A DNA stretch of 64,000 bases, taken from contig OZ024741.1 in NCBI GenBank assembly GCA_964016885.1, forward strand, positions 26,536,001-26,600,000. The letters run 5' to 3'. Position numbers and translations under genes: made by a program. Positions within the stretch are counted from its first letter, which is position 1. Every line of letters begins with the position of its first letter. The DNA comes from Eledone cirrhosa. Taxonomy: Eukaryota. Shown in pieces: positions 44,642 through 59,546 of this stretch. The notes under the pieces were generated by a model. The model was not told the DNA's origin. It made no database searches and saw only the letters and a list, made by a program, of their open reading frames with translations.

Positions 44642-45194
44642 CTGTAAAGAAAGGTCAAGCAAAAGAGGTCAGCAGTCAGAAGGAAGGAGAAATGACAGTG
44701 GCATGGCTAGGAGCTTTCCACAATCAAGACTCGATAGGTAGGAGAAGCTCATTTTGGCATGGTTTCTACAGCTGGATAAGCCTCATAACATCAACAACTT
44801 TACAGAGAAGATTGGGTGCATTTTAGTGTTGCATCAGCATTACCTCTTCACAGATTGGACTGTATGCATTTTATGGCATCAGAACCACCACTTTACAGAG
44901 TGGACTAGGTGCATTTTATTATGGCACCAGCACTATCACTTTAGACAGTGAAGTTGATGCATTGCATTGTGACAATTTTACAGAGTGTACTGGGTGTATT
45001 TTACTGTAACAACATCACTACAGTTACAGGTGTATTGTGACACAACCACTTACATTTTACATGATTAAAAAAAATAAAGAAAAAATAAAGAATTTTGAAA
45101 AAGTATTAAAAAACATTGTAAAATTAAATTCTCCTAAAACTTGTTGATCAACATATAGCAAGTGTTTATCTTCAATGAGAGGAAACATAGAACA

Positions 45195-45236
45195 TCACTG
45201 ATGATGTCACAGATATGTGTGTTGAAAGAACTCTGA
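45195..45236 (+). ncRNA. Degenerate minimal hammerhead-like motif
   Basis: TCA-CTGATGA-(CACA/TGTG hairpin)-GAAA-GAAC-TC-TGA; stem I only 3 bp. Confidence 0.35.
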
Positions 45237-47149
45237 GAAACTATATCTATATATGTATATGATAAACATTGATTGCCAGATGAATTATTTATAGAAATAT
45301 AAAAATATACTGAAGTGAAAACCAAACCAAACAGTGAGTGTATTTTACTATATTTTTTTGGCAATATTAGAACATCATGACCCTCCCCAAATATAACAAT
45401 AATGGTATTTTCTTTATTCTTTTATTTCTTTCAGCCAATAGATTCTAAATTACAGGACATATACAAACACAAATGTAAATATAGACATCATGTATAAATG
45501 TGGTTGGTGTTAGAAAGGGCATCCAGTCATAGAAACCAAGCCAAAACCAGTTCTGTATGAGCAAAACACTGTCATCTGATCTGGCTTGTCTTATAATGGG
45601 ACAACTCGTCTTACCCATGTTAATGTGGATAAATGGATGTTAAACGGTGATGATGATTATACATACACACACAAATACAAACATACATACATACACATAT
45701 ACATGGCTTCTATGCAGTTTCTGTTTGCCAAATTTCATTCACAGGGTATTGTAAGCAGAAAATATTTGGTCATGGTGCCACACAGTCGATGTCACATGGT
45801 TACAAAGTAAATTCTTTAAGTACATATGACCGATGATTTGGTATTGTACAATAATGGTCAGTGCTGGGAAGATCGGTGATGAAAGGGTTAAGACATTTGA
45901 CCGTAACCTTATTTACAAGGAACAGAAAACATACCTCAAATGTAATAAAAACTATAAAAATATACAGTTCAATCAAGTTTTCAATACCCCATGCCTCAAT
46001 GAATAGCATACGTACACATGTCTGTGTGTGTGTATATATATATATAAATATACATATATATACATACGTACACGTCTGTGTGTGTATATATATATACATA
46101 TATATGTACACCTGTCTGTGTGTGTGTATATATATAAATATACATATATATACATACGTACACATGTCTGTGTATGTATATATATAAATATACATATGTA
46201 CACATGTCTGTGTGTGTGTGTATATATATATAAATATACATATATATACATACGTACACATGTCTGTGTGTGTGTGTATATATATATACATATATACATG
46301 TATATATATATATACATGTCTGTGTGTGTATATATATAAATATATATATATATATCACCTAAGTATATGGCTTAAAATGTGAAGTTAAGTTTCTAAACTG
46401 GAAAGCTCCTCCAAAATCTCCAATGTTGGTAATCCTATTACAAGACTGAGAAATAACGTATTTGTTGGTAGTTTCTTCAACTAGTACTACTAAAACAAAC
46501 ACCACCACCACAACCAACAATACCACCATCACCACAAACCCCAGCACCACCATCACAACCAACAATACCACCACCAGCACCACATACCACCACTACAACT
46601 AATAACAATACCAACAGCACTACAACCGCCCCCACCAACACTGAAACTGCTAACACCACTAACACCGCCACCACCACCATCACTAAAACTTCCGCAGCCA
46701 TTACCACCAATAACAATACTAACATCAATTCTACAACCTGTACTACTACCACAGCCACTACTAGCATCACAACAACAAAAGCAACCACAACAACAACTAT
46801 AACAGCTTAGCTGAAATTACAAGAGTAAACCAAGAGAAAAGAAGAAAACAAACAGGCAAGTGAAAATTACAGACCCCCCCCCCCCTTCTTTAAGTAAACT
46901 TCATGTTGATAACTTATTTCAATATTCTTTCTTTATTGTCACCATGGTTACTATCATATACATAACAACAACTACAACAACAACGAGAAACTTCTTTCAA
47001 ACTATTGCTTCAATACATTATATTCCAGAAGGAAAGAGTTTTTCTTGAAAGCTGATTATAAACTAAGCTATATAAACTGTGTCCATCCCCACCCCACCTT
47101 TTAGTTTCAGAATTACAGGCTGGTTTGAAGTATTTATTGATGTTGTTGA

Positions 47150-48746
47150 CACTGTTCTGTTCTGGTTCACTGCCCACCATCATAACTGGCTTGACACCAA
47201 ACTGTTAAGACATTTGTTGTTCTGTTCTGGTTCACTGCACATCATCATCATAACTGACACCAAACTGTTAAGACATTTGTTGTTCTGTTCTGGTTCACTG
47301 CACATCATCATCATAACTGACACCAAACTGTTAAGACATTTGTTGTTCTGTTCTGGTTCATTGCCCACTATCATCATCATAACTATCATAGTACCAGGAG
47401 GGCATCAACTGTTCTGGTTCACTGCCCATCATCATAACTGTCATGGCATCATGCAGGCATCAACTGTTCTGGTTCACTGCCCATCATCATCACAACTGAC
47501 ACCAAACTATTGTGTTAAGACATTTGTTGTTCTGTTCTGGTTCACTGCCCATCATCATCACAACTGACACCAAACTATTGTGTTAAGACATTTGTTGTTC
47601 TGTTCTGGTTCACTGCCCATCATCATCACAACTGACACCAAACTATTGTGTTAAGACATTTGTTGTTCTGTTCTGGTTCACTGCCCATCATCATCACAAC
47701 TGACACCAAGCTATTGTGTTAAGACATTTGTTGTTCTGTTCTGGTTCACTGCCCATCATCATCACAACTGACACCAAACTATTGTGTTAAGACATTTGTT
47801 GTTCTGTTCTGGTTCACTGCCCATCATCATCACAACTGACACCAAGCTATTGTGTTAAGACATTTGTTGTTCTGTTCTGGTTCACTGCCCATCATCATCA
47901 CAACTGACACCAAACTATTGTGTTAAGACATTTGTTGTTCTGTTCTGGTTCACTGCCCATCATCATCACAACTGACACCAAGCTATTGTGTTAAGACATT
48001 TGTTGTTCTGTTCTGGTTCACTGCCCATCATCATCACAACTGACACCAAACTATTGTGTTAAGACATTTGTTGTTCTGTTCTGGTTCACTGCCCATCATC
48101 ATCACAACTGACACCAAGCTATTGTGTTAAGACATTTGTTGTTCTGTTCTGGTTCACTGCCCATCATCATCACAACTGACACCAAACTATTGTGTTAAGA
48201 CATTTGTTGTTCTGTTCTGGTTCACTGCCCATCATCATCACAACTGACACCAAACTATTGTGTTAAGACATTTGTTGTTCTGTTCTGGTTCACTGCCCAT
48301 CATCATCACAACTGACACCAAACTATTGTGTTAAGACATTTGTTGTTCTGTTCTGGTTCACTGCCCATCATCATCACAACTGACACCAAGCTATTGTGTT
48401 AAGACATTTGTTGTTCTGTTCTGGTTCACTGCCCATCATCATCACAACTGACACCAAACTATTGTGTTAAGACATTTGTTGTTCTGTTCTGGTTCACTGC
48501 CCATCATCATCACAACTGACACCAAACTATTGTGTTAAGACATTTGTTGTTCTGTTCTGGTTCACTGCCCATCATCATCACAACTGACACCAAACTATTG
48601 TGTTAAGACATTTGTTGTTCTGTTCTGGTTCACTGCCCATCATCATCACAACTGACACCAAGCTATTGTGTTAAGACATTTGTTGTTCTGTTCTGGTTCA
48701 CTGCCCATCATCATCACAACTGACACCAAGCTATTGTGTTAAGACA
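47150..48746. repeat. 68-bp minisatellite (~18 near-identical copies) preceded by 63-bp related units
   Basis: CATTTG at 47521 and 47589; only an A/G variant (CCAAAC/CCAAGC) in the main array. Confidence 0.96.
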
Positions 48747-49304
48747 CTTATTATGTGAGGCTATAAACTAGAATTTAGCTTTGTCTTATGTCTTTAAATA
48801 GGAAACCTTTAAAATGGGTTGTTTTGTTCCATAGAGCCAAAGTTGGTTAAGAAAAGGGTTGTCACTGAGGTGTACAACATGACCAAGCAGGACTATGGAT
48901 GCCCTTCCTAACAGCAACAATCAAAATTTGTAATGTCCTCAACAAGACTAAAGGGTCCACTCTATGGCGCCGCAATTTATTTGCCAAACACTTTACAGAG
49001 TCAAGTGATAATTCTCTGTATTATAAGATGAGACACTACTAGTACTAATAGCTCCGTCTCCCTCTCTCTCTCTCTTTTGTTCTCTGTACAACAGAGCTAT
49101 GATCTAAAATATGGCAAGTGAAGAGGGGGGAGGGTAAGATGCGGAAATAAAACAGCTGCTACTGAGCTGCATAGTTAGTTTTCTAGGAATGGTTTATCAC
49201 AGACAGGAATGGAGGGGGACACAACTGAAGACCAGAAACAGGTAGAATACATACAAACACAATAATATATGAAGAGATGATTATAAAAAAAAACTAAAAC
49301 AAAA

Positions 49305-49492
49305 AATAATTGTTTCTACTTTGGGCACAAGGCCTGCAATTACCTCAGTGTATTACTGGTGCTTTATTTTATTGACCCCGTAAGGATGAAAGGCAGTGTT
49401 AACCTCGACGGGATTTGAATTCAAACTATAAAAGGCCATAACTCTATGCTGCAAAGCATGGAATCTGAACCTCTACCGATACTGCCAATCCA
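49305..49492 (-). mobile_element. tRNA-derived SINE
   Basis: Same family motifs as 56045-56432. Confidence 0.8.
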
Positions 49493-49739
49493 AATAATAA
49501 TAATGAAAGATGAAAATAGGAAAAATATTGAGAAATGAAGAATAATTAACCACAATAATAAATGGCTGAGAAAACTGGGTAAAATATCCCTTGAAATGGT
49601 AAATAATAAAATAGACAGAAGCATCTGGCGAATTCTTCCCAGATCCTGAGACACTATACCTGATTTTTTCAACTATTATAGTGGTCGGCTATTATTATAC
49701 TTATTTGTATTGGGATGCACATATTTTAAATATCATATA

Positions 49740-50230
49740 TATCATCATCATCACCGTTTAACTAGCATAGGTTAGACAGGTTGTCTTATTTCAGTCAAGC
49801 CAGGTCAGATGACCATGTCTCGCTCACTCTGATTTTGGCTTGGTTTCGGCAGCTGGATGCCCTTCCTAATGCCAACCACATATACATTGTGGACTGGGCA
49901 CTTTTTGTCATGACATCTACATGACCCCCTTACAGTGTGGACTGGGTGTTTTTTGTTGTGACACCTACACAACCACTTTACAGTGTGGACAGTGCTTTTT
50001 GTCATGACATCTACATGACCACCTTACAGTGTGGACTGAGTGCTTTTTGTTGTGATGCCTACATGATCACTTTGCAATGTGGGCTGGATGCTTTGGTGGG
50101 AAGGGTGTGTGGGGATTTAGGAGGTGGATATATGGGCATGTGTGATGGGCGGAGTTTTAGGATGGGGGTGAAGGTGTATACCAGATGTATGCTTCAGCTT
50201 GTGCTCATGGGAAGAAGGCAGGTCTTACAT
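49740..50230 (-). mobile_element. Diverged RTE family A-type 3' UTR with ~49-bp internal repeats
   Basis: GGATGCCCTTCCTAA motif; repeated TTACAGTGTGGAC...GACATCTACATGACC. Confidence 0.7.
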
Positions 50231-50581
50231 ATACATATATATGCTAGTTAGGTGTATAACTATAGTTACAGGCAGCACGCCGTTCGAAGCACTCACTGCT
50301 ATTACGAGGTCCGTCTCGTGTTGGTTTGTATTCCAGACTTAAGGCAGCTGTAGTGTGCAGAGTATAAATAGAGTTTAGATGTGTCTTTGCATATATAAAC
50401 TCACATATCTGAGGAGATGTCAAAGAAAAGTCAGATCCCGGTCATTATGATTGAGCTGATTGATATTGAAACAATTGTAATATGCCAATAAAGTTTGTAC
50501 ATATAAAGTTTGTAATATGCCAATAAGTTTGTGCCAATAAGTTTGTACAATAAAGTTTGTAATATGCCAATAAGTTTGTAC

Positions 50582-53500
50582 ATACTATCGCTTGCCTGGT
50601 TGCCTTTCGATATACGATATATGATGGATGGATGGACTGCGGAATCCTGGAGAGTGGAGGTGAGAGAGAAAAATCTGGACGCTCAGCGACAATGCCAAAG
50701 ATAAAGACAAATTCACCCCTTGGACGAGAATGCGAGCACTCCTCATTGTTTCGACCACGGACGGCTAACATAACACCATCGCCCCCCGCCCCTCACCGCC
50801 CCCAACCCCCAAACGCAATCCAAAACTTCAGAGTTGGTACCATAAATGTAGGCACCCTAAAGGGTCGCGCTAACGAGGTTGTAGAAATGCTTGAACGTAA
50901 GGAGGTCGATGTTTGTTGTATTCAAGAGACCAGGTGGAGGGGTGGGTCTGCTAGGTTCATTGAGGGTAAAAAACGTTGTTATAAGCTTTTCTGGGTGGGA
51001 AACGACGATGGGCTGGGTGGAGTAGGAATCATGGTAGCAGAAAAGTGGGCAGATAAGATAATAGACGTAAATAGAGTGAACGACAGAATAATTAAAATAC
51101 GACTTGTCCTCAATAGAACTACGGTGACAGTAATATCTGCGTACGCACCCCAATCCGGACTGCCCGGCACTATAAAAGACAGATTCTATGAGACACTGAT
51201 GCTAACTACCTCCCAAATATCCGACAGTGACTATATAATTATCGCAGGCGACCTAAATGGTCACGTTGGACAACATTGTGACGGCTACGACGAAATCCAT
51301 GGAGGCTATGGGTTTGGTACTAGAAATGAGGAAGGCTCCAGAATCCTGGAATTCTGTGATGCAAATAACCTAACTATCTGTAACACTAACTTCAAAAAAC
51401 GTGACAATCACCTGATCACCTATAGATCCGGGGAACACACAAGCCAGGTAGATTATATCCTTACCAGAAGACGTGACAGAGTGTCTGTTGTTAACACTAA
51501 ATCCCTCCCCCATGAAGAATGCAACTCCCAACATAGACTGATAATTAGCGACCTCATAGTCAGGACGAGACGTACTCGACAACAGAAGAGGACTATCCTC
51601 AGGAGGAAAATATGGAAGTTAAAGGACCCCACAGCCAGGAATAAATTTCAAAGCATATTACTTGATGCTTTCGACAGTAAGGAAGAACATTTAGAGTCGG
51701 ACAATATAGAGGGAGAGTGGGAATTTCTGAAAGCAAACCTGCTGTTGGCGACAGACGAGGTCTGTGGCTGGAGCAGGCCTGTAGGCAGGAGGAGAGTAAC
51801 ATGGTGGTGGAACAGTAAGGTGGAGGGGTCAATTAAGGCCAAAAAGCAGGCTTGGAAAGTATGGCGGGATGGGGGAAGTAGAGAGGACTATCAAGTGGCC
51901 AGGAGGGAAGCTAGGAGACAAGTGTACTTAGCAAGAAGGGAAGCTGAGGAAAGAAAGTTCAAGCATGTTCTACAACGCGATGACCAAAAACGTGAGGTGT
52001 TCAGGATTGCTAGGCAATGCGTCAAGGAAAACCGTGATATTGTCGGGGAGAAGTGTGTACTAAACGACGATGGCACACTTGCCATCACCGACGCTGATAA
52101 GAAGGTAGCTTGGAAGTGTCACTATGAAAGGCTTCTAAATGAGGAGAATAATTGGGAGAAAGGCAGTCTCCCCCATATCGACCCAATAGAGGGACCAGCA
52201 GTGTTAGTCGAGGGGAGTATAATAAGTAAGGCAATCAAGGATATGAAGTCTGGTAAGGCGGCTGGGCCTTCGGAAATAGTTGCTGAGATGCTGAAGGCAT
52301 CTGGCACGGTGGGACACACCATGGTCACCCGCATAGTTAACCAAGTCGTACAAAACGGGGTTGTTCCGAAGGACTGGCATAGCAGCATCATCGTTAACTG
52401 TTATAAGGGTAAAGGAGACGCCCTAGATAGGAGTAACTATAGAGGCATTAAATTAATCGACCAGGTCATGAAGGTCACGGAAAGAGTAATAGCGCAGCTA
52501 ATCAGAGAGAGAATTGACCTAGATGAAATGCAGTTCGGGTTTGTGTCAGGCAAAAGTACCACAGACGCTCTTTTCATAGTACGACAACTACAAGAGAAGT
52601 ACCTAGCTAAAGGTAAACCCCTCTACTTAGCTTTTGTCGACTTGGAGAAAGCCTTCGACAGAGTCCCCCGCTCCATTATCTGGTGGGCTCTTAGAAAACT
52701 AGGCGTTGACGAATGGCTTGTGAGGGCTATACAAGCCATGTATAAAGAAACAGTCAGCAAGGTTAGAATTAACAACGAATATAGTGAAGAGTTTAGCGTA
52801 AAAGTCGGCGTCCATCAGGGCTCTGTTCTCAGTCCACTACTATTTATTATTGCCCTTCAGGCCATAACAGAGGAGTTCAAGACAGGCTGCCCATGGGAAC
52901 TCCTATACGCAGACGACCTGACACTCATAGCGGAATCAATGGCCGAGCTAGAGAAGAAATTCCAAACATGGAAGCACGGCCTAGAGTCAAAAGGACTTAA
53001 AATTAACCTGGCTAAGACCAAAGTACTAGTTTGTAGGAAAGAAAACAAGGCGGCGGTCCCTTCTGGGAAATGGTCGTGCTCGGTGTGTAGGAAAGGCGTA
53101 GGTAGAAACTCCATTTTATGTCCTAAATGCAAAGTATGGGTGCATAAAAGATGTAGTGGGATCACAGGTAGGCTAACTAAGAACATAGATTTTACATGTG
53201 GCCGGTGCTCTGGTGCAATAAGTAGCAGCAAGTGCCCACAAACTACTAGCTCTTTCAATTGCGCAGAGGGTTCTATAGAAATAGTGGACAGCTTCCGTTA
53301 CCTGGGCGATAAAATCAGCAGTGGGGGAGGGTGCTCTGAAAGTACTGTAGCTAGAGTCAGAACTGGTTGGAAAAAGTTCAGAGAGCTTATACCACTATTA
53401 GCTGCTAAAGGGTTCTCACTAAAAATGAAAGGCAGGTTGTACGATGCCTGCATACGAACAGCAATGCTGCATGGCAGTGAGACCTGGGCATTGTGTGCAG

Positions 53501-54258
53501 AGGATATACGCAGACTAGAGAGGAACGAAGCTTGCATGCTCCGCTGGATGTGTAACAGTAATATACGTGAACGGCAAAGCATAAACGAACTAAGGAATAA
53601 ATTAGAGATAAGAGGGATCAGATGTTGTTTACTCGAGAGAAGGCTACGTTGGTATGGACACGTGATGCGCATGAAAGTCGATAGCTGTATAACAAAGTGC
53701 AGGGCAATAAAGATAGACGGTAGTCACGGAATAGGCAGACCTAGAAAAACCTGGGACGAGCTGATAAACTCCGACATCACACACTTACACCTCTCCAAGA
53801 CAATGTCACTGGACCGAGACCTTTGGCGGTACTCAGTAACAGAGAAGACCCGCCTTACCTAAATATATAGTAAAACCTACTCCAGCCAGTAGGCATCTCT
53901 AACAAATACACCCCGTCCCACCACCCCCACCCGATCCACACCCCCCCGTTCTATGTAAAGTTATGTTGGTGCCGCGCCATCGAGGCCGAAACAAATGAGA
54001 TCGTGTAGGTGTCACGACAAAAAAACACACAGTCCACGCTGTAATGTGGCCGTGTAGGCAACACGGTAAAAACCTCCCAGACCCACACTGTAAATGTGGT
54101 TGGTGTTAGGAAGGGCATCCAACTGTAGAAAACCTGCCAGACAGTCCTATGCGAGCAAGACAATCACTCTTGCCTCAAGTGGGACTACCCCCGTCCAAAC
54201 CCATGCAAGCGTGGAACACGGACGTTAAACGCTGATGATGATGATGATGATGATGATG
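50582..54258 (+). mobile_element. Full-length RTE LINE, family A copy 2
   Basis: ORF + 3' UTR ending GGACGTTAAACGCTGATGATGAT...; no TSD recognised. Confidence 0.92.
50632..53862 (+). CDS. RTE-clade LINE polyprotein: APE + RT with PHD-type finger (copy 2)
   Basis: Uninterrupted 1076-aa ORF nearly identical to copy 1; YADD at 52906-52917. Confidence 0.95.
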   Translation: MDCGILESGGEREKSGRSATMPKIKTNSPLGRECEHSSLFRPRTANITPSPPAPHRPQPPNAIQNFRVGTINVGTLKGRANEVVEMLERKEVDVCCIQETRWRGGSARFIEGKKRCYKLFWVGNDDGLGGVGIMVAEKWADKIIDVNRVNDRIIKIRLVLNRTTVTVISAYAPQSGLPGTIKDRFYETLMLTTSQISDSDYIIIAGDLNGHVGQHCDGYDEIHGGYGFGTRNEEGSRILEFCDANNLTICNTNFKKRDNHLITYRSGEHTSQVDYILTRRRDRVSVVNTKSLPHEECNSQHRLIISDLIVRTRRTRQQKRTILRRKIWKLKDPTARNKFQSILLDAFDSKEEHLESDNIEGEWEFLKANLLLATDEVCGWSRPVGRRRVTWWWNSKVEGSIKAKKQAWKVWRDGGSREDYQVARREARRQVYLARREAEERKFKHVLQRDDQKREVFRIARQCVKENRDIVGEKCVLNDDGTLAITDADKKVAWKCHYERLLNEENNWEKGSLPHIDPIEGPAVLVEGSIISKAIKDMKSGKAAGPSEIVAEMLKASGTVGHTMVTRIVNQVVQNGVVPKDWHSSIIVNCYKGKGDALDRSNYRGIKLIDQVMKVTERVIAQLIRERIDLDEMQFGFVSGKSTTDALFIVRQLQEKYLAKGKPLYLAFVDLEKAFDRVPRSIIWWALRKLGVDEWLVRAIQAMYKETVSKVRINNEYSEEFSVKVGVHQGSVLSPLLFIIALQAITEEFKTGCPWELLYADDLTLIAESMAELEKKFQTWKHGLESKGLKINLAKTKVLVCRKENKAAVPSGKWSCSVCRKGVGRNSILCPKCKVWVHKRCSGITGRLTKNIDFTCGRCSGAISSSKCPQTTSSFNCAEGSIEIVDSFRYLGDKISSGGGCSESTVARVRTGWKKFRELIPLLAAKGFSLKMKGRLYDACIRTAMLHGSETWALCAEDIRRLERNEACMLRWMCNSNIRERQSINELRNKLEIRGIRCCLLERRLRWYGHVMRMKVDSCITKCRAIKIDGSHGIGRPRKTWDELINSDITHLHLSKTMSLDRDLWRYSVTEKTRLT

Positions 54259-54321
54259 CAACACTGATTTCGATTCCACTTACTTTATTTCTCTCTCTCT
54301 CTATATATATATATATCTATC

Positions 54322-55008
54322 TATCATCATCTTTTAACGTCCATCTTCCACGTTAGCATCGGGTGTGTGTGTGTGTGTCATCATCACCGTTTTACGTCCG
54401 TTCTTCCACGCTAGCATGGGTTAGACGGGTTGTCCTGTTGTGGGCAGTGTCTGGTCGGCTGACCATGCCTTGCTCATACAGGAACTGATCTGGCTTGATT
54501 TCTACAGCTGGATGCCCTTCCTAACACCAACCTCATTTACAGTGAGTGCTGGGTGCTTTTTCGTGGCGCCTACACGTCCACTTTACAGTGTGGGTATATA
54601 TATATATCATCATCATCAGGTTTAGCGTCCGTGTTCCACGCTTGCATGGGTTTGGACGGGAGTTTTCCCACTTGAGGCAAAAGTGGTTGTCTTGCTCGCA
54701 TAGGACTGTCTGGCGGGTTTTCTACAGTTGGATGCCCTTCCTAACACCAACCACATTTACAGTGTGGGTCTGGGGAGGTTTTTACCGTGTTGCCTACACG
54801 GCCACATTACAGCGTGGGCTGTCTGGCGGGTTTTCTACAGCTGGATGCCCTTCCTAACACCAACCACATTTACAGTGTGGGGCTGGGAGGTTTTTACCGT
54901 GTTGCCTACACGGCCACATTACAGCGTGGACTGTCTGGCGGGTTTTCTACAGCTGGATGCCCTTCCTAACACCAACCACATTTACAGTGTGGGGCTGGGA
55001 GGTTTTTA
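54322..55008 (-). mobile_element. Pile-up of three tail-bearing retroposon fragments, the last with about three 112-bp modules
   Basis: Tails near 54322, 54378 and 54606; GGATGCCCTTCC recurs at ~112 bp spacing. Confidence 0.82.
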
Positions 55009-55029
55009 CACATATATATATATGTGTGT

Positions 55030-55260
55030 GTGTGCATTTGAAAATAAGGTTTTTCTCCTTGCATACATTTCGCTCATCTAGGGAATGTCTTCACATGCTA
55101 CCATTATGTCTTTCTACTTGGTTATAACCTTTTTGAAATATTTACTTCTGTGTTCATAGATTGATATTTCTTAGTTTAAGATGAACCTGCTTACGGTGAA
55201 AGCAGAAATTATTTGTTTAAACTTTTTAACTGTGGTAATAATAAATATTTGCTCTACTAG
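55030..55260 (+). mobile_element. Fragment of the same Helitron family as 28543-29684
   Basis: AGGGAA(C/T)GTCTTCAC...GAAATATTTACTTCTG...AAACTTT shared with 28800-28970; ends CTAG|T. Confidence 0.65.
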
Positions 55261-55393
55261 TTATATATATATATATATTAATAAAAGGAATTCCAACTTT
55301 GTCTGATTTACTCGTTTTATTTACAATCCTTTAAAATTTATAATGGTATTAGAATGAAATAGTATGGTAGAATATTAAATGTTAAGTGTTAAT

Positions 55394-55432
55394 TGAACAA
55401 GTACTTTCATGCTTTCGCAATCTTCAGGTTCA
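55394..55432 (-). ncRNA. Minimal type-I hammerhead ribozyme (mirror copy, sense to the VPS41 pre-mRNA)
   Basis: Exact reverse complement of 55506-55544. Confidence 0.82.
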
Positions 55433-55505
55433 TAATGTGTGATGACAGTCAAGTTTGCAATTTTCAACTGTTGAAAATTGCAAACTTGACTGTCACCACA
55501 CATTA

Positions 55506-55544
55506 TGAACCTGAAGATTGCGAAAGCATGAAAGTACTTGTTCA
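55506..55544 (+). ncRNA. Minimal type-I hammerhead ribozyme
   Basis: UGAAC-CUGAAGA-U-UGC(GAAA)GCA-U-GAAA-GUAC-UU-GUUCA: 5-bp stem I, full core, GNRA-capped stem II, palindromic GUAC stem III loop. Confidence 0.82.
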
Positions 55545-55564
55545 ATTAACACTTAATATTTAAT

Positions 55565-55700
55565 TGTTTCTACTTTAGGCACAAAGCCAGCAATTACCCA
55601 GTGCATTACTGGTACTTTATTTTATCGACCCCGTAAGGATGAAAGGTAAAGTCAACCTCAGTGGGATTTGAACTCAGATCGTAAAGGGACATAACTATGC
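55565..55700 (-). mobile_element. 5'-truncated tRNA-SINE inserted in the palindrome arm, TSD TTTAAT
   Basis: TTTAAT at 55559-55564 and 55701-55706; the left arm shows the empty site. Confidence 0.85.
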
Positions 55701-55844
55701 TTTAATATTCTACCATACTATTTCATTCTAATACCATTATAAATTTTAAAGGATTATAAATAAAACGAGTAAATCAGACAAAGTTGGAATTCCTTTTATT
55801 AATATAATCTTCTATACACAATCATACACACCCGTGTATATTTA

Positions 55845-55878
<34 letters not shown>

Positions 55879-56044
55879 CAGGTATATATAAACTAGTAGA
55901 GCAAATATTTATTATTAGCACAGATTAAAAGTTTAAGTAAATAAGATAGAGATTGAACCATGTGCTGATCAATTGCGAAATGCACGTCACACCTGAATAA
56001 AGTTAATGAAAATTTGACACCTCGTCCATGCTTATTATTTTTTG

Positions 56045-56432
56045 GGATTGGTAGTATCGGTAGAGGGTCTGACGCCATGCTTTGCAGCAAAGAGTTACGG
56101 CCCTTTATGATCCGAGTTCAAATCTCGCCGAGGTTAACTTTGCCTTTCATCCTTACGGGGTCGATAAAATAAAGTACCAGTAATGTATTGGGTAATTGCT
56201 GGCCTTGTGCCAAAAGTAGAAACAATTATTTTTTTAATAAAGGGTGGTGGATTGGCAGTATCGGTAGAGGGTTGGACGCCATGCTTTGACGTATAGAATT
56301 ACGGCCCTTGCCATTCTGAGTTCAAATCCCGCCGAGGTTAACTTTGCCTTTCATCCTTACGGAGTCGATAAAATAAAGTATCAGTAATGCACTGGGTAAT
56401 TGCTGGCCTTGTGCCAAAAGTAGAAACAATTA
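56045..56432 (+). mobile_element. Head-to-tail dimer of tRNA-derived SINEs
   Basis: TGGYAGTATCGGTAG (A-box-like), GAGTTCAAATCYC (B-box-like), central CCTTTCATCCTTACGGGGTCGATAAAATAAAGTACCAG resembling the recalled MetaSINE domain, AT-rich tail. Confidence 0.85.
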
Positions 56433-57067
56433 TTTTTTTAATTAAATAAATATATTTATATATATATGAATTTGATGTGATGTCATATATCCAGGTTTTT
56501 AGAATAAATATACTATATCTCTGGCTGTCGTAAGGGACAACTAAAAGGGTTGGTGATAAGAACGGCATTCAGCTATAAAATAGTGTCTCAAAAACATCCT
56601 ATCTAACTCGAGCCAGTATGGAAAAATGGATGTGAATATGATGATGATGAGGTGGTGGTATGGTGGTGGTGATGATGATGATGGATGATGATGAAGATGA
56701 GGTAGTGGTGGTGGTGATGATAATGAGGATGATGGTGATGATGATGATGGTGGTGGTGGTGATGACAACAATGATAGGGATGATGGTGGTGGTGGTGTTG
56801 ATGATGATGGTGGTGGTGGTGTTGTGATGATCATTATGATAATGATGATAGTGATAATGAGGATGATGTTGATGATGTAGATGGAGGTATGACCCTTATG
56901 TGAGTATATATGGTACTTTCTTCCTTTCTATATTTTTGTCTTAAACCTTATTAAAAGACAACTTGAAGAACTCCAGAATATTTTGCAGAGATTTAGGGAG
57001 AGGAAACACTGATCTACTGATGTACTGTGTAGGTTAGTGGACATTTAGTCAATGGAAGTGAGACAAA

Positions 57068-57292
57068 TAATTATTTCTACTTTAAGCACAAGGCCAGCAA
57101 TTTGGGGAGGGGGGAGGAAAGTTGATTAAATTGACCCCAGTGTGTTACTAGTACTTTATTTTATTGACCCCGTAAGGTTGAAAGGCAAAGCTAACCGCTG
57201 GGGATTTAAACTCATAACATAAAGTGCCACAATTCTATGCTGCAAAGCATTTTGTCTGACACTCTACCGATCCACTTCTGCTAATCCACTGC
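57068..57292 (-). mobile_element. tRNA-derived SINE
   Basis: Same family, diverged. Confidence 0.75.
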
Positions 57293-57295
57293 ACC

Positions 57296-57524
57296 TTAAC
57301 CCTTTAGTATTTAACCCGGCCGTATCTGGCCAGAATTCTCTCACCTCTTTCTGTTCAAACCTGCCATAACTAGCTGCTCATACTTATGTTAAGGTATTGT
57401 TCTCAAACTAAACAATATGAAACTCTCATAGATTCAATATTATGTGAGATAATTATATGAAAGAAAGTGTTTACTGTGAAAATACAATAGTAAATATAGA
57501 GTAATGAAAACGGTAAAGGGTTAA
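57296..57524. mobile_element. TTAA-flanked piggyBac-like MITE
   Basis: TTAACCCTTTA ... TAAAGGGTTAA; inverted relative at ~40740-40932. Confidence 0.7.
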
Positions 57525-58829
57525 ATGAAAGAAATAATGAAAGGAAAGAGAAGATAAAAAGAAAAAAAGAGGAGGAAAAGCAGCTCTGTGGACAGACAGT
57601 TGACTTTCTTGAGATATTTTGGATACTTGGGATGTTATTAATAAGAATTAAACATCAATCTAGGAAAAGGTGAGGAGGAGAAATTAGACAGGTAGAAAAA
57701 TATTTTGAACATTTCTCAGGATTCTCCAAAGAAATTGGTGGGAAATAAATATAAAATATTTCTTTATAATTGACATGAAATTAAAATGTTTAATAATTAT
57801 ACAAACTTTATGTGTGTATATGTGTCTATGTAAGTGTGTATGTATGTACACACAAACATATATATACATCCAAGATAAAAAAAGGAAGAAATAGGGAGTG
57901 AGATGGTGAAAGAGAGAGAGATGGAAAGAAAAGAGATATACAAGCATACAAAGAAATTAAAGATAGAATGAGAGTACACACTAATATTTTATACACACAC
58001 ACACATATATATATAGAGAGAGAGAGAAAGTGAAGGGGACATAGGGAGGTGAGAGAGAAAAATAGAGAGAAAGACAGGAAGTGAGACGGGGGGGGGGACA
58101 TAGCGAGGTGAGAGAGAGGAAGTGAGGAGGGGGCATAGAGAGGTGAGAGAGAGGAAGTGAGGAGGGGGACACAGAGAAGTGAGAGAGAACAATAGGGGGA
58201 AAGAGAGAAAGTAAGGGGGACATAGCAGAGAGATAGATATAGGAGAAAGAGAGAGAGAGAGAGAGATGGAGATAATGTTGGCAGTTATCCAATATGTCCA
58301 TTCCATCATTAGAAGCAGCAGAAACAATCTATGAAATCACCATTTCTCAACATTCCCAGACTTAAGATAAACCAAGATGAATAACGGCAGCAACTTGAGA
58401 GAAAACCATTCCAGTCTACAGAATAACCCCTTCCATTTCTCTTCTCCATCTTTGCAAATAAATTAAAGTCTTTTTTTCTTTTCTTTTTGACATTTTTTCT
58501 TTTCATTTCTTAATTTATATTCTTTCTTTCATTCAATAATAGAATTTTTCTCAGAACACCAGACTAGCCAATGTTTAACTCTTTTGATACCAAGCCATGT
58601 AACCCCCCCCCCCCCGCCTTCTATCGTACAAAGCTGAATATTTTAAGTGTTTATATTTATCTAAAAAACAACAACTTTTCATAGTGATTTGAAAGGTGTG
58701 GTAGAAATGGCTTGAGAAAATTAAATTTGAAGAAGACGTGTGTTTGTTTTGAAGAAATTAAATTTTCAGTTCACATATGCACATATATACATACACACAC
58801 ACACACACATATATAGCATTATTATGTAA

Positions 58830-58951
58830 CTTGCCATTCTGAGTTCAAATCCCGCCGAGGTTAACTTTGCCTTTCATCCTTACGGGGTCGATAAAATAAA
58901 GTACCAGTAATGTACTGGGTAATTGCTGGCCTTGTGCCAATAATAGAAACA
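58830..58951 (+). mobile_element. 5'-truncated tRNA-SINE with 9-bp TSD ATTATGTAA
   Basis: TSD at 58821-58829 and 58952-58960. Confidence 0.85.
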
Positions 58952-59042
58952 ATTATGTAAATTCTGTTATATGTAAACACACACAAACACAACACACACG
59001 CATATATACACACATGTATATATATATATATATATACATACA

Positions 59043-59418
59043 TAAGACCCGCCTTCCCTTGCATACAAACCTACAGTCAGTAAGCACCTCTTAACCCAAT
59101 ATACACCCCACCCCACACACCCTACCCCATCCTCCCATTTCCGTCCACTGTCAGTGACAAGAAAAAGCACCCAGTCCACACTGTAAAGTGGTCGTGTAGG
59201 AGACATGGTAAAAAGGCCCCCAGTCCACACTGTAAAGTGGTCGTGTAGGAGACATGGTAAAAAGGCCCCCAGTCCACACTGTAAAGTGGTCGTGTTAGGA
59301 AGAGCATCCAGCCGTAGAAAACCTGCCAGAGACACTTCCGTATGAGCGAGACACGCAGCAAATGGAACGAAACATGCTAGTGTGGAAGATGAACATTAAA
59401 TAATGACGATGATGATGA
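59043..59418 (+). mobile_element. RTE family A-type 3' UTR fragment with ~49-bp tandem module
   Basis: Starts AAGACCCGCCTT (ORF end); CAGTCCACACTGTAAAGTGGTCGTG three times. Confidence 0.8.
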
Positions 59419-59546
59419 CCATAATTATGTCAATTCTGTTGTTATATGTGTACACACACAACACACACACACACATAGCATTATTATGTAAATTCTGTTA
59501 TATGTACACATAACTCTGACTTTGTTGTAAAAATAAACTAACTTAC

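Follow-up and report, generated by a model that had tools for sequence, protein, structure and literature searches.

A palindrome with a hammerhead motif on each strand in a VPS41 intron is a likely stub of a young Penelope-like retrotransposon

An intron of VPS41 in Eledone cirrhosa harbors a palindrome that carries a minimal hammerhead ribozyme motif on each of its strands. How such an arrangement arose, whether its ribozymes can act, and what the insertion means for the host gene are the questions raised by this locus, which we addressed in the 64,000-nucleotide stretch of DNA that contains it (the window). Our analysis makes it likely that the palindrome is the stub of a young Penelope-like retrotransposon, with two ribozyme-bearing 3' ends placed head to head in a TA microsatellite. 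It would have formed in what was likely one event, with a short capped sense RNA as the template on which both target strands primed reverse transcription; inside the resulting hairpin, the ribozymes are predicted to be inactive.

Re-examination of the sequence confirmed the head-to-head palindrome and its single-base centre (Table 1). The arms do not fold back without a break, as the original prediction had it; instead, a 136-bp repeat splits the right arm. The inner perfect stem covers 95 bp (55374-55468/55470-55564, 98%), and pairing resumes beyond the insertion for a further 106 bp (55274-55379/55701-55806, 99%). Without the insertion, the arm measures 195 bp. The inserted repeat is putatively tRNA-SINE-like, judging by A/B-box-like motifs recognized by eye in a longer copy at 56045-56241. 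Within the (TA)n microsatellite that flanks the palindrome no target duplication can be read. The original prediction had been silent on two features, the 37-bp tail on only one arm and the high copy number of the unit. Its concern that the palindrome could be an assembly fold-back artefact is ruled out by at least 582 occurrences of the same centre, by the later insertion inside this copy, and by fold-back loose ends in the contigs of an independent run.

Table 1. Features of the palindrome and its host intron (positions in the window)
Feature	Position	Strand	Evidence
VPS41 intron holding the palindrome, 14.9 kb	44642..59546	-	exons on both sides
Left (TA)n target	55263..55273	.	
Left arm, corresponding to the Penelope-like element's 3' end (part of the pseudo-LTR) and running outwards from the inferred start site; no tail	55274..55469	-	same 195 bp terminates the ORF-bearing copies L071, L085, L086 and L100
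VPS41 sense-strand minimal type-I hammerhead motif; cut predicted after 55399	55394..55432	-	
Centre of the head-to-head junction, inside near-palindromic ACAGT, the family's hard 5' boundary, 31 nt below the parent's TATA box	55469..55469	.	
Right arm, left-arm sequence in opposite orientation, split at 55565-55700	55470..55806	+	3 differences/195 bp from the left arm
Minimal type-I hammerhead motif; cut predicted after 55539 (arm 70/71); stem III has the palindrome AGUACU	55506..55544	+	
Later insertion, 5'-truncated unrelated repeat, 6-bp duplication TTTAAT on both sides	55565..55700	-	
37-bp tail, right arm only; between pseudo-LTR and ORF1 in full-length copies	55807..55843	+	
Expanded (CT)n/(TA)n, combining the short spacer that follows the tail in the element with the TA target	55844..55890	+	sequence; spacer in full-length copies

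On both sides of the TA tract lies an older repeat family (2,242 candidates; window 55060-55262 (+) and 55891-55944 (-)). The 54 bp that end it recur as an inverted duplicate, 91% alike, beyond the tract. Since this inverted 54-bp duplicate stands on the far side, the young palindrome sits at the centre of an older inverted duplication. A third, decayed hammerhead candidate at 55181-55222 was rejected, being part of this unrelated repeat, whose candidates are 73-86% identical and whose 20 aligned copies do not conserve the catalytic box. No link was found between the older repeat at that position and the ORF of the Penelope-like element.

The proposed tie to Penelope-like pseudo-LTRs proved right: the arm forms the 3' end of an element that encodes reverse transcriptase (RT) and GIY-YIG domains, it is present in high copy number, and the four ORF-bearing copies of Table 1 link it to these ORFs. 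In long copies, an ORF with RT, a C-x4-C-x2-C linker and, at its C terminus, a GIY-YIG domain is followed ~310-360 bp downstream by the arm. The 775-aa ORF of L100 matches RVT_1 at E=2.9e-6, below the curated cut-off, and GIY-YIG at E=3.3e-6, above the cut-off; its translation contains the C-x4-C-x2-C linker and the endonuclease residues CxxC...H...H (CCHH). The parent is an endonuclease-positive (EN+) Penelope-like element, in which RT is followed by a C-terminal GIY-YIG. A CX2-5CXXC linker before GIY-YIG and CCHH in the endonuclease characterize Neptune and Nematis (PMC8557442), and linker and endonuclease residues together would assign the parent to this joint class.

All 30 fetched body starts are preceded by an arm end and the tail, which lies between arm and ORF1 in each; this is the pseudo-LTR arrangement, a partial tandem. 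Over the body's first 300 bp, all 40 scored 5' ends (257 candidates) show 100% identity, so the family is young. L100 (G000:C1:21871500-21881300) is itself an 8.7-kb palindrome of two inverted full-length 4.4-kb units, 99.4% alike, in each of which a 449-aa ORF1 overlaps an open 775-aa RT-EN frame, and it turns at arm 71-81, the predicted ribozyme cut. The RT-EN ORF lies in the -1 frame relative to ORF1 and the overlap holds TTTTTTA (L100:5081-8661, G000:C1 ~21.876-21.880 Mb; L131-L160). This split layout is exact in 22/31 copies, with small variants in most others, and likely reflects a programmed frameshift; a comparable ORF split is given for some PLE types (PMC8557442). Fragments of a second Penelope-like family, with a different RT and GIY-YIG, adjoin copies of this family in the flanks of L071 and L054. 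In addition, a tandem array of ~54-bp units, each an arm piece (~85-126) plus (TA)n, occupies G000:C21:2464915-2468634 and beyond; it is a satellite derived from the Penelope-like element.

Exact words from the arm match the genome 3,253 times (26-mer, inner end) and 6,664 times (28-mer, near the outer end), and the exact 25-bp centre at least 582 times, against 0 for the controls. We fetched 100 stretches around the first matches on contig C1, namely 60 of 83 listed inner-word loci and 40 of 45 further listed outer-word loci; the samples are top BLAST hits and first contig C1 matches, not random draws.

The boundary at which both arms meet recurs in solo arms. A gap pattern tied to the arm at one end and to (TA)4 at the other yielded 648 matches, and the first 100 of these, counted by hand, left 85 events after removal of 9 repeats and 6 near-duplicates. 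In 84 of the 85, the 5' end falls between -3 and +7 (two reach -6 in AT filler), and the single exception continues for 22 nt of parental sequence. Above this wall, the parent has a TATA box, whose first T is 31 nt from position -3, and a CCAAT motif at about -118. An extra G before ACAG was seen at 8/24 junctions reaching -3, compared with 1/29 parent-type copies (Fisher p=0.007, run as 1/30). An extra C occurs there at 6/24 junctions; since it is almost as frequent and one parent copy has the G, reading the G as a trace of the cap is not specific. Contigs of four other runs show a ~20-30 fold step in depth at this wall, which is a poor measure drawn from at most two samples, and those of one of these runs (X4) have fold-back loose ends at the same position. 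We infer from motifs and junctions that the wall is probably a transcription start at the A of ACAGT. Among copies leading into a full-length body, 25/30 extend at least 45 bp past the wall, so other, longer templates exist. The wall was also considered as a splice acceptor (pyrimidine tract plus TACAG), a candidate that we rejected as 24/85 junctions retain the AG that splicing would remove.

The tail provides a second regularity. Exactly one tail is present in 54 of 57 short pairs (p=2e-13 versus independent choice) and in 11 of 12 long head-to-head pairs, one of the 12 being a mis-pairing inside L100. The two arms of a pair differ at 76 of 793 diagnostic sites (9.6%), versus 35% between pairs. 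Arms with three or more such differences were found in 12/59 pairs; some pairs used two RNAs or were later converted, and a version with a single RNA is not universal.

These regularities suggest the following route of insertion. The pseudo-LTR promoter would initiate RNA at the A of ACAGT, with CCAAT at about -118 and TATA at -31. The element protein may nick both (TA)n strands and start synthesis at two internal sites flanking the tail, as an anole protein does in vitro (PMC11167929). Both cDNAs, copied mostly from one RNA species, would then run off the shared RNA 5' end ~200 nt away. Their 3' ends could pair through near-palindromic ACTGT around a central mismatch and be joined, which would leave a T or A at the centre, or a ragged variant. 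The stub has neither promoter nor ORFs and is a dead end, and since both arms retain the 70 nt upstream of the cut, the ribozyme was uncut in the RNA behind this copy. The anole protein shows no strand preference between its two start sites in vitro (PMC11167929), so the one-tail rule needs a coupling unseen at the bench.

Alternatively, the inverted arm may stem from fold-back self-priming of one cDNA or, following a proposal made for rotifer Penelope elements (PMC3846280), of an antisense template, and not from two primings; the element and its dead-end status would be the same. The arms of a pair mostly belong to a common subfamily, as expected if one strand copies the other, and L100 turns at arm 71-81, where the end of a cDNA could fold back on a local inverted repeat. 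However, the commonest junction would require a hairpin loop of 1 nt, and there are pairs with discordant linked alleles (e.g., L011, L025, L028, L040). In addition, the junction lies at the distance expected from a sense-strand TATA and carries the extra G, which fits poorly with an antisense template. Fold-back alone also leaves the one-arm tail and the precise 3' outer ends on TA unexplained. We consider this route unlikely.

A third possibility is that the palindrome propagates itself as a non-autonomous unit, MITE- or retrozyme-like, and is copied whole. The identical 25-bp centres and the uniform length of the top matches would fit such a unit, but a 1-nt centre is found in only 19/49 short pairs, and the other 30 have different spacings through deletions, fillers and small duplications. 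Exact centres spread over several subfamily haplotypes and occur in both orientations to the tail; read against the tail, 11 have T at the centre and 7 have A. The variation in centres and the presence of palindromes in several subfamilies show that they arose repeatedly and independently, probably afresh with every insertion, and not by self-copying. Their uniformity reflects a fixed template stop instead of a master palindrome, since, besides the varying centres, solo (TA)n-joined arms stop at the palindrome boundary. The promoter motifs lie outside the unit, and there are no tandem repeats as retrozymes have. No fixed master with a constant centre emerged, and the class of MITEs and self-copying palindromes was rejected; this reading is largely refuted and very improbable.

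With priming of both target strands on a sense RNA as the preferred reading, the ends of the copies may also tell whether that RNA was cut. TA-joined ends pile up near the ribozyme cut, with 27 of 44 events in 6 nt (arm 74-69) versus 16 in the 24 nt upstream (p=1e-9); for immediate TA joins the numbers are 19 versus 15 (p=4e-6). The pile reaches 2.3-3.8 times the rate of the downstream control. Inverted junctions show no step at the cut, with 16 ends at 74-69 and 24 at 68-59 (p=0.43). Instead, their ends spread over 75-59, the 3' half of the motif (48 versus 12 in the downstream control), a pattern also expected from stalling at the folded motif or from later deletion. All these junction counts are hand tallies by gap patterns, which catch too few ends at a distance from the anchor, and the control has 114 further matches beyond those listed. 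The two data sets disagree on a sharp cleavage wall at 70/71, which the TA-joined copies support and the inverted junctions do not. Two body-linked copies, L100 and L147, begin at 70/71, and 4/5 in-arm starts among the 30 body-linked copies lie at or below the cut. Ends near the cut amount to at most a few per cent of the start-site ends (27 events versus 648 matches), and their scarcity is consistent with uncut RNA as the main template.

A more far-reaching reading, which we offer only tentatively and with more doubt than belief, takes the stubs as a mass fossil record. One protein dimer would prime both strands from the two sites beside the tail on a single capped sense RNA and would fuse the run-off cDNAs head to head, and the smaller pile of ends at arm 69-74, including two full-length insertions that start at 71, would record hammerhead cleavage in the germ line, of which the cited papers report no trace in vivo. 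If true, this dimer-priming reading would overturn the idea of antisense self-priming.

As for the ribozymes themselves, a descriptor scan covering the 64-kb window on both strands returned exactly two matches, in agreement with the original prediction in cut sites and stems. Each motif has the CUGANGA and GAAA boxes, a UH cut triplet, stems I and II, and a palindromic stem III. Rfam reported no hammerhead family at the palindrome even at E<=10, and only generic hairpins matched, under their gathering scores. The 39-nt motif is predicted to fold with -4.2 kcal/mol alone, -13.8 kcal/mol as an active dimer through AGUACU, and -67 kcal/mol when paired with its antisense. That a hairpin competes with the ribozyme fold had been foreseen correctly; the contest is one-sided, however, with the hairpin of the whole insertion predicted to win outright (minimum free energy ~-330 kcal/mol; probability of ribozyme stem I <1e-45). 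According to this modeling, the hairpin suppresses the ribozyme on either strand. The antisense arm is transcribed first on either strand, and the two motifs cannot dimerise within one transcript because they are on opposite strands. Even in a single arm the ribozyme fold is not favoured by the folding model. The entire motif is intact in 68/124 arms, and none of the 14 subfamily-variable positions falls inside its 39 nt (p about 0.04), in a family too young for covariation; this distribution hints at constraint on the motif in source copies.

The placement of the palindrome in a VPS41 intron is borne out by the flanking exons. On the minus strand, exons lie at ~61.6 kb, ~59.6 kb and ~44.6 kb, and the latter two join in frame across an intron with GT-AG ends (59546 and 44642). 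Consistent with the original prediction, tblastn of the 64-kb window gave no Penelope-type ORF. The same intron holds a non-LTR retrotransposon with an open frame of 1,099 codons, antisense to the gene (window 50563-53862 (+)), comprising an AP endonuclease, RT and a PHD-like finger; a cluster of inverted repeats at 54026-55009 adjoins it. Copies of the tRNA-SINE-like repeat lie near the palindrome in both orientations (window 56045-56445, 57065-57271, 58812-58955), and these would give the intron extra dsRNA stems. That the insertion is kept as a regulatory hairpin or ribozyme switch in VPS41 pre-mRNA, as its intronic position and capacity to form long dsRNA from either strand might suggest, is hardly credible against hundreds to thousands of like insertions, a stem broken by the later insertion and a ribozyme fold predicted to be absent. 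Nothing points to VPS41 regulation: this is one among so many such insertions, whose arms drift near the between-copy rate (divergence of 2.6% within pairs versus 3.2% between copies). The palindrome is most likely functionally inert in VPS41.

As an object, then, the palindrome is a known by-product of Penelope-like insertion, and what it offers is statistical: thousands of young stubs, their junctions readable, bear on how head-to-head copies form and on whether minimal hammerheads cut in vivo. The TATA-linked wall, the one-tail rule and the shared haplotypes lead to sharp predictions for an existing in vitro system, and the family retains apparently intact young copies usable for such tests. 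In addition, hundreds of near-perfect 400-bp hairpins in the genome are a likely, if putative, source of nuclear dsRNA. Judged by title and abstract, none of the papers found by literature search reports twin priming by Penelope elements, although subscription papers and supplements such as those of PMC8557442 and PMC11167929 may do so. Nor did titles and abstracts mention a start-site or non-templated signature at head-to-head junctions, a fixed promoter-linked wall or tail coupling, or such elements in cephalopods.

The anatomy, that is, pseudo-LTR, inverted truncated copy, single tail, TA target, and minimal hammerheads on opposite strands, is already published (PMC4209133, PMC3846280, PMC8557442). 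As in metazoan PLEs, the hammerheads have a type-I fold, a short stem I, an extra base after A9 and, for dimer formation, a palindromic region at stem III (Cervera and de la Pena 2014, PMC4209133), and hammerhead pairs on opposite strands, 100-700 bp apart, are described in the same paper. Stem II here has 3 bp and a GAAA loop, whereas Schistosoma motifs have 7-8 bp, and, barring a count of UGC/GCA in a different register, it closes with U-A where G10.1-C11.1 is usual (PMC4209133). Non-LTR retrozymes are likewise short non-coding PLE-derived units with type-I hammerheads, but their tandems run head to tail and are able to cut as dimers and circularise (bioRxiv 10.64898/2026.07.22.740005). Here, the motifs are on opposite strands and the unit is a head-to-head pair, not the head-to-tail tandem that defines the retrozyme class, which we rejected for this palindrome.

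The anole Poseidon element PAc studied in vitro shares two internal RT start sites flanking the tail, with both target strands cut and extended (Frangieh 2024, PMC11167929). There, too, the RNA 5' end sets product length and uncut RNA is the main template; RNA ends at the ribozyme cut were not found, in the sections of that report considered here. PAc belongs to a different clade, and the same sections do not show head-to-head joining or one-tail coupling. The closest relatives are the EN+ units of Neptune/Nematis type (PMC8557442, PMC3846280), which share the C-terminal GIY-YIG after RT, the CX4CXXC linker, a hammerhead in the pseudo-LTR and partial tandems, as well as a 5'-truncated copy in inverted orientation, placed head to head, a 30-40-bp tail at one end, AT-rich or (TA)n targets and an ORF1 in another frame. 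In contrast to the Penelope of D. virilis, whose internal promoter is TATA-less (PMC2377424), the present family has a TATA box above its wall. Published Neptune/Nematis-type units are truncated at variable points, to the extent that these two sources describe them; here a dominant stub, both arms of which end at a fixed site below the TATA box, is repeated in hundreds to thousands of copies.
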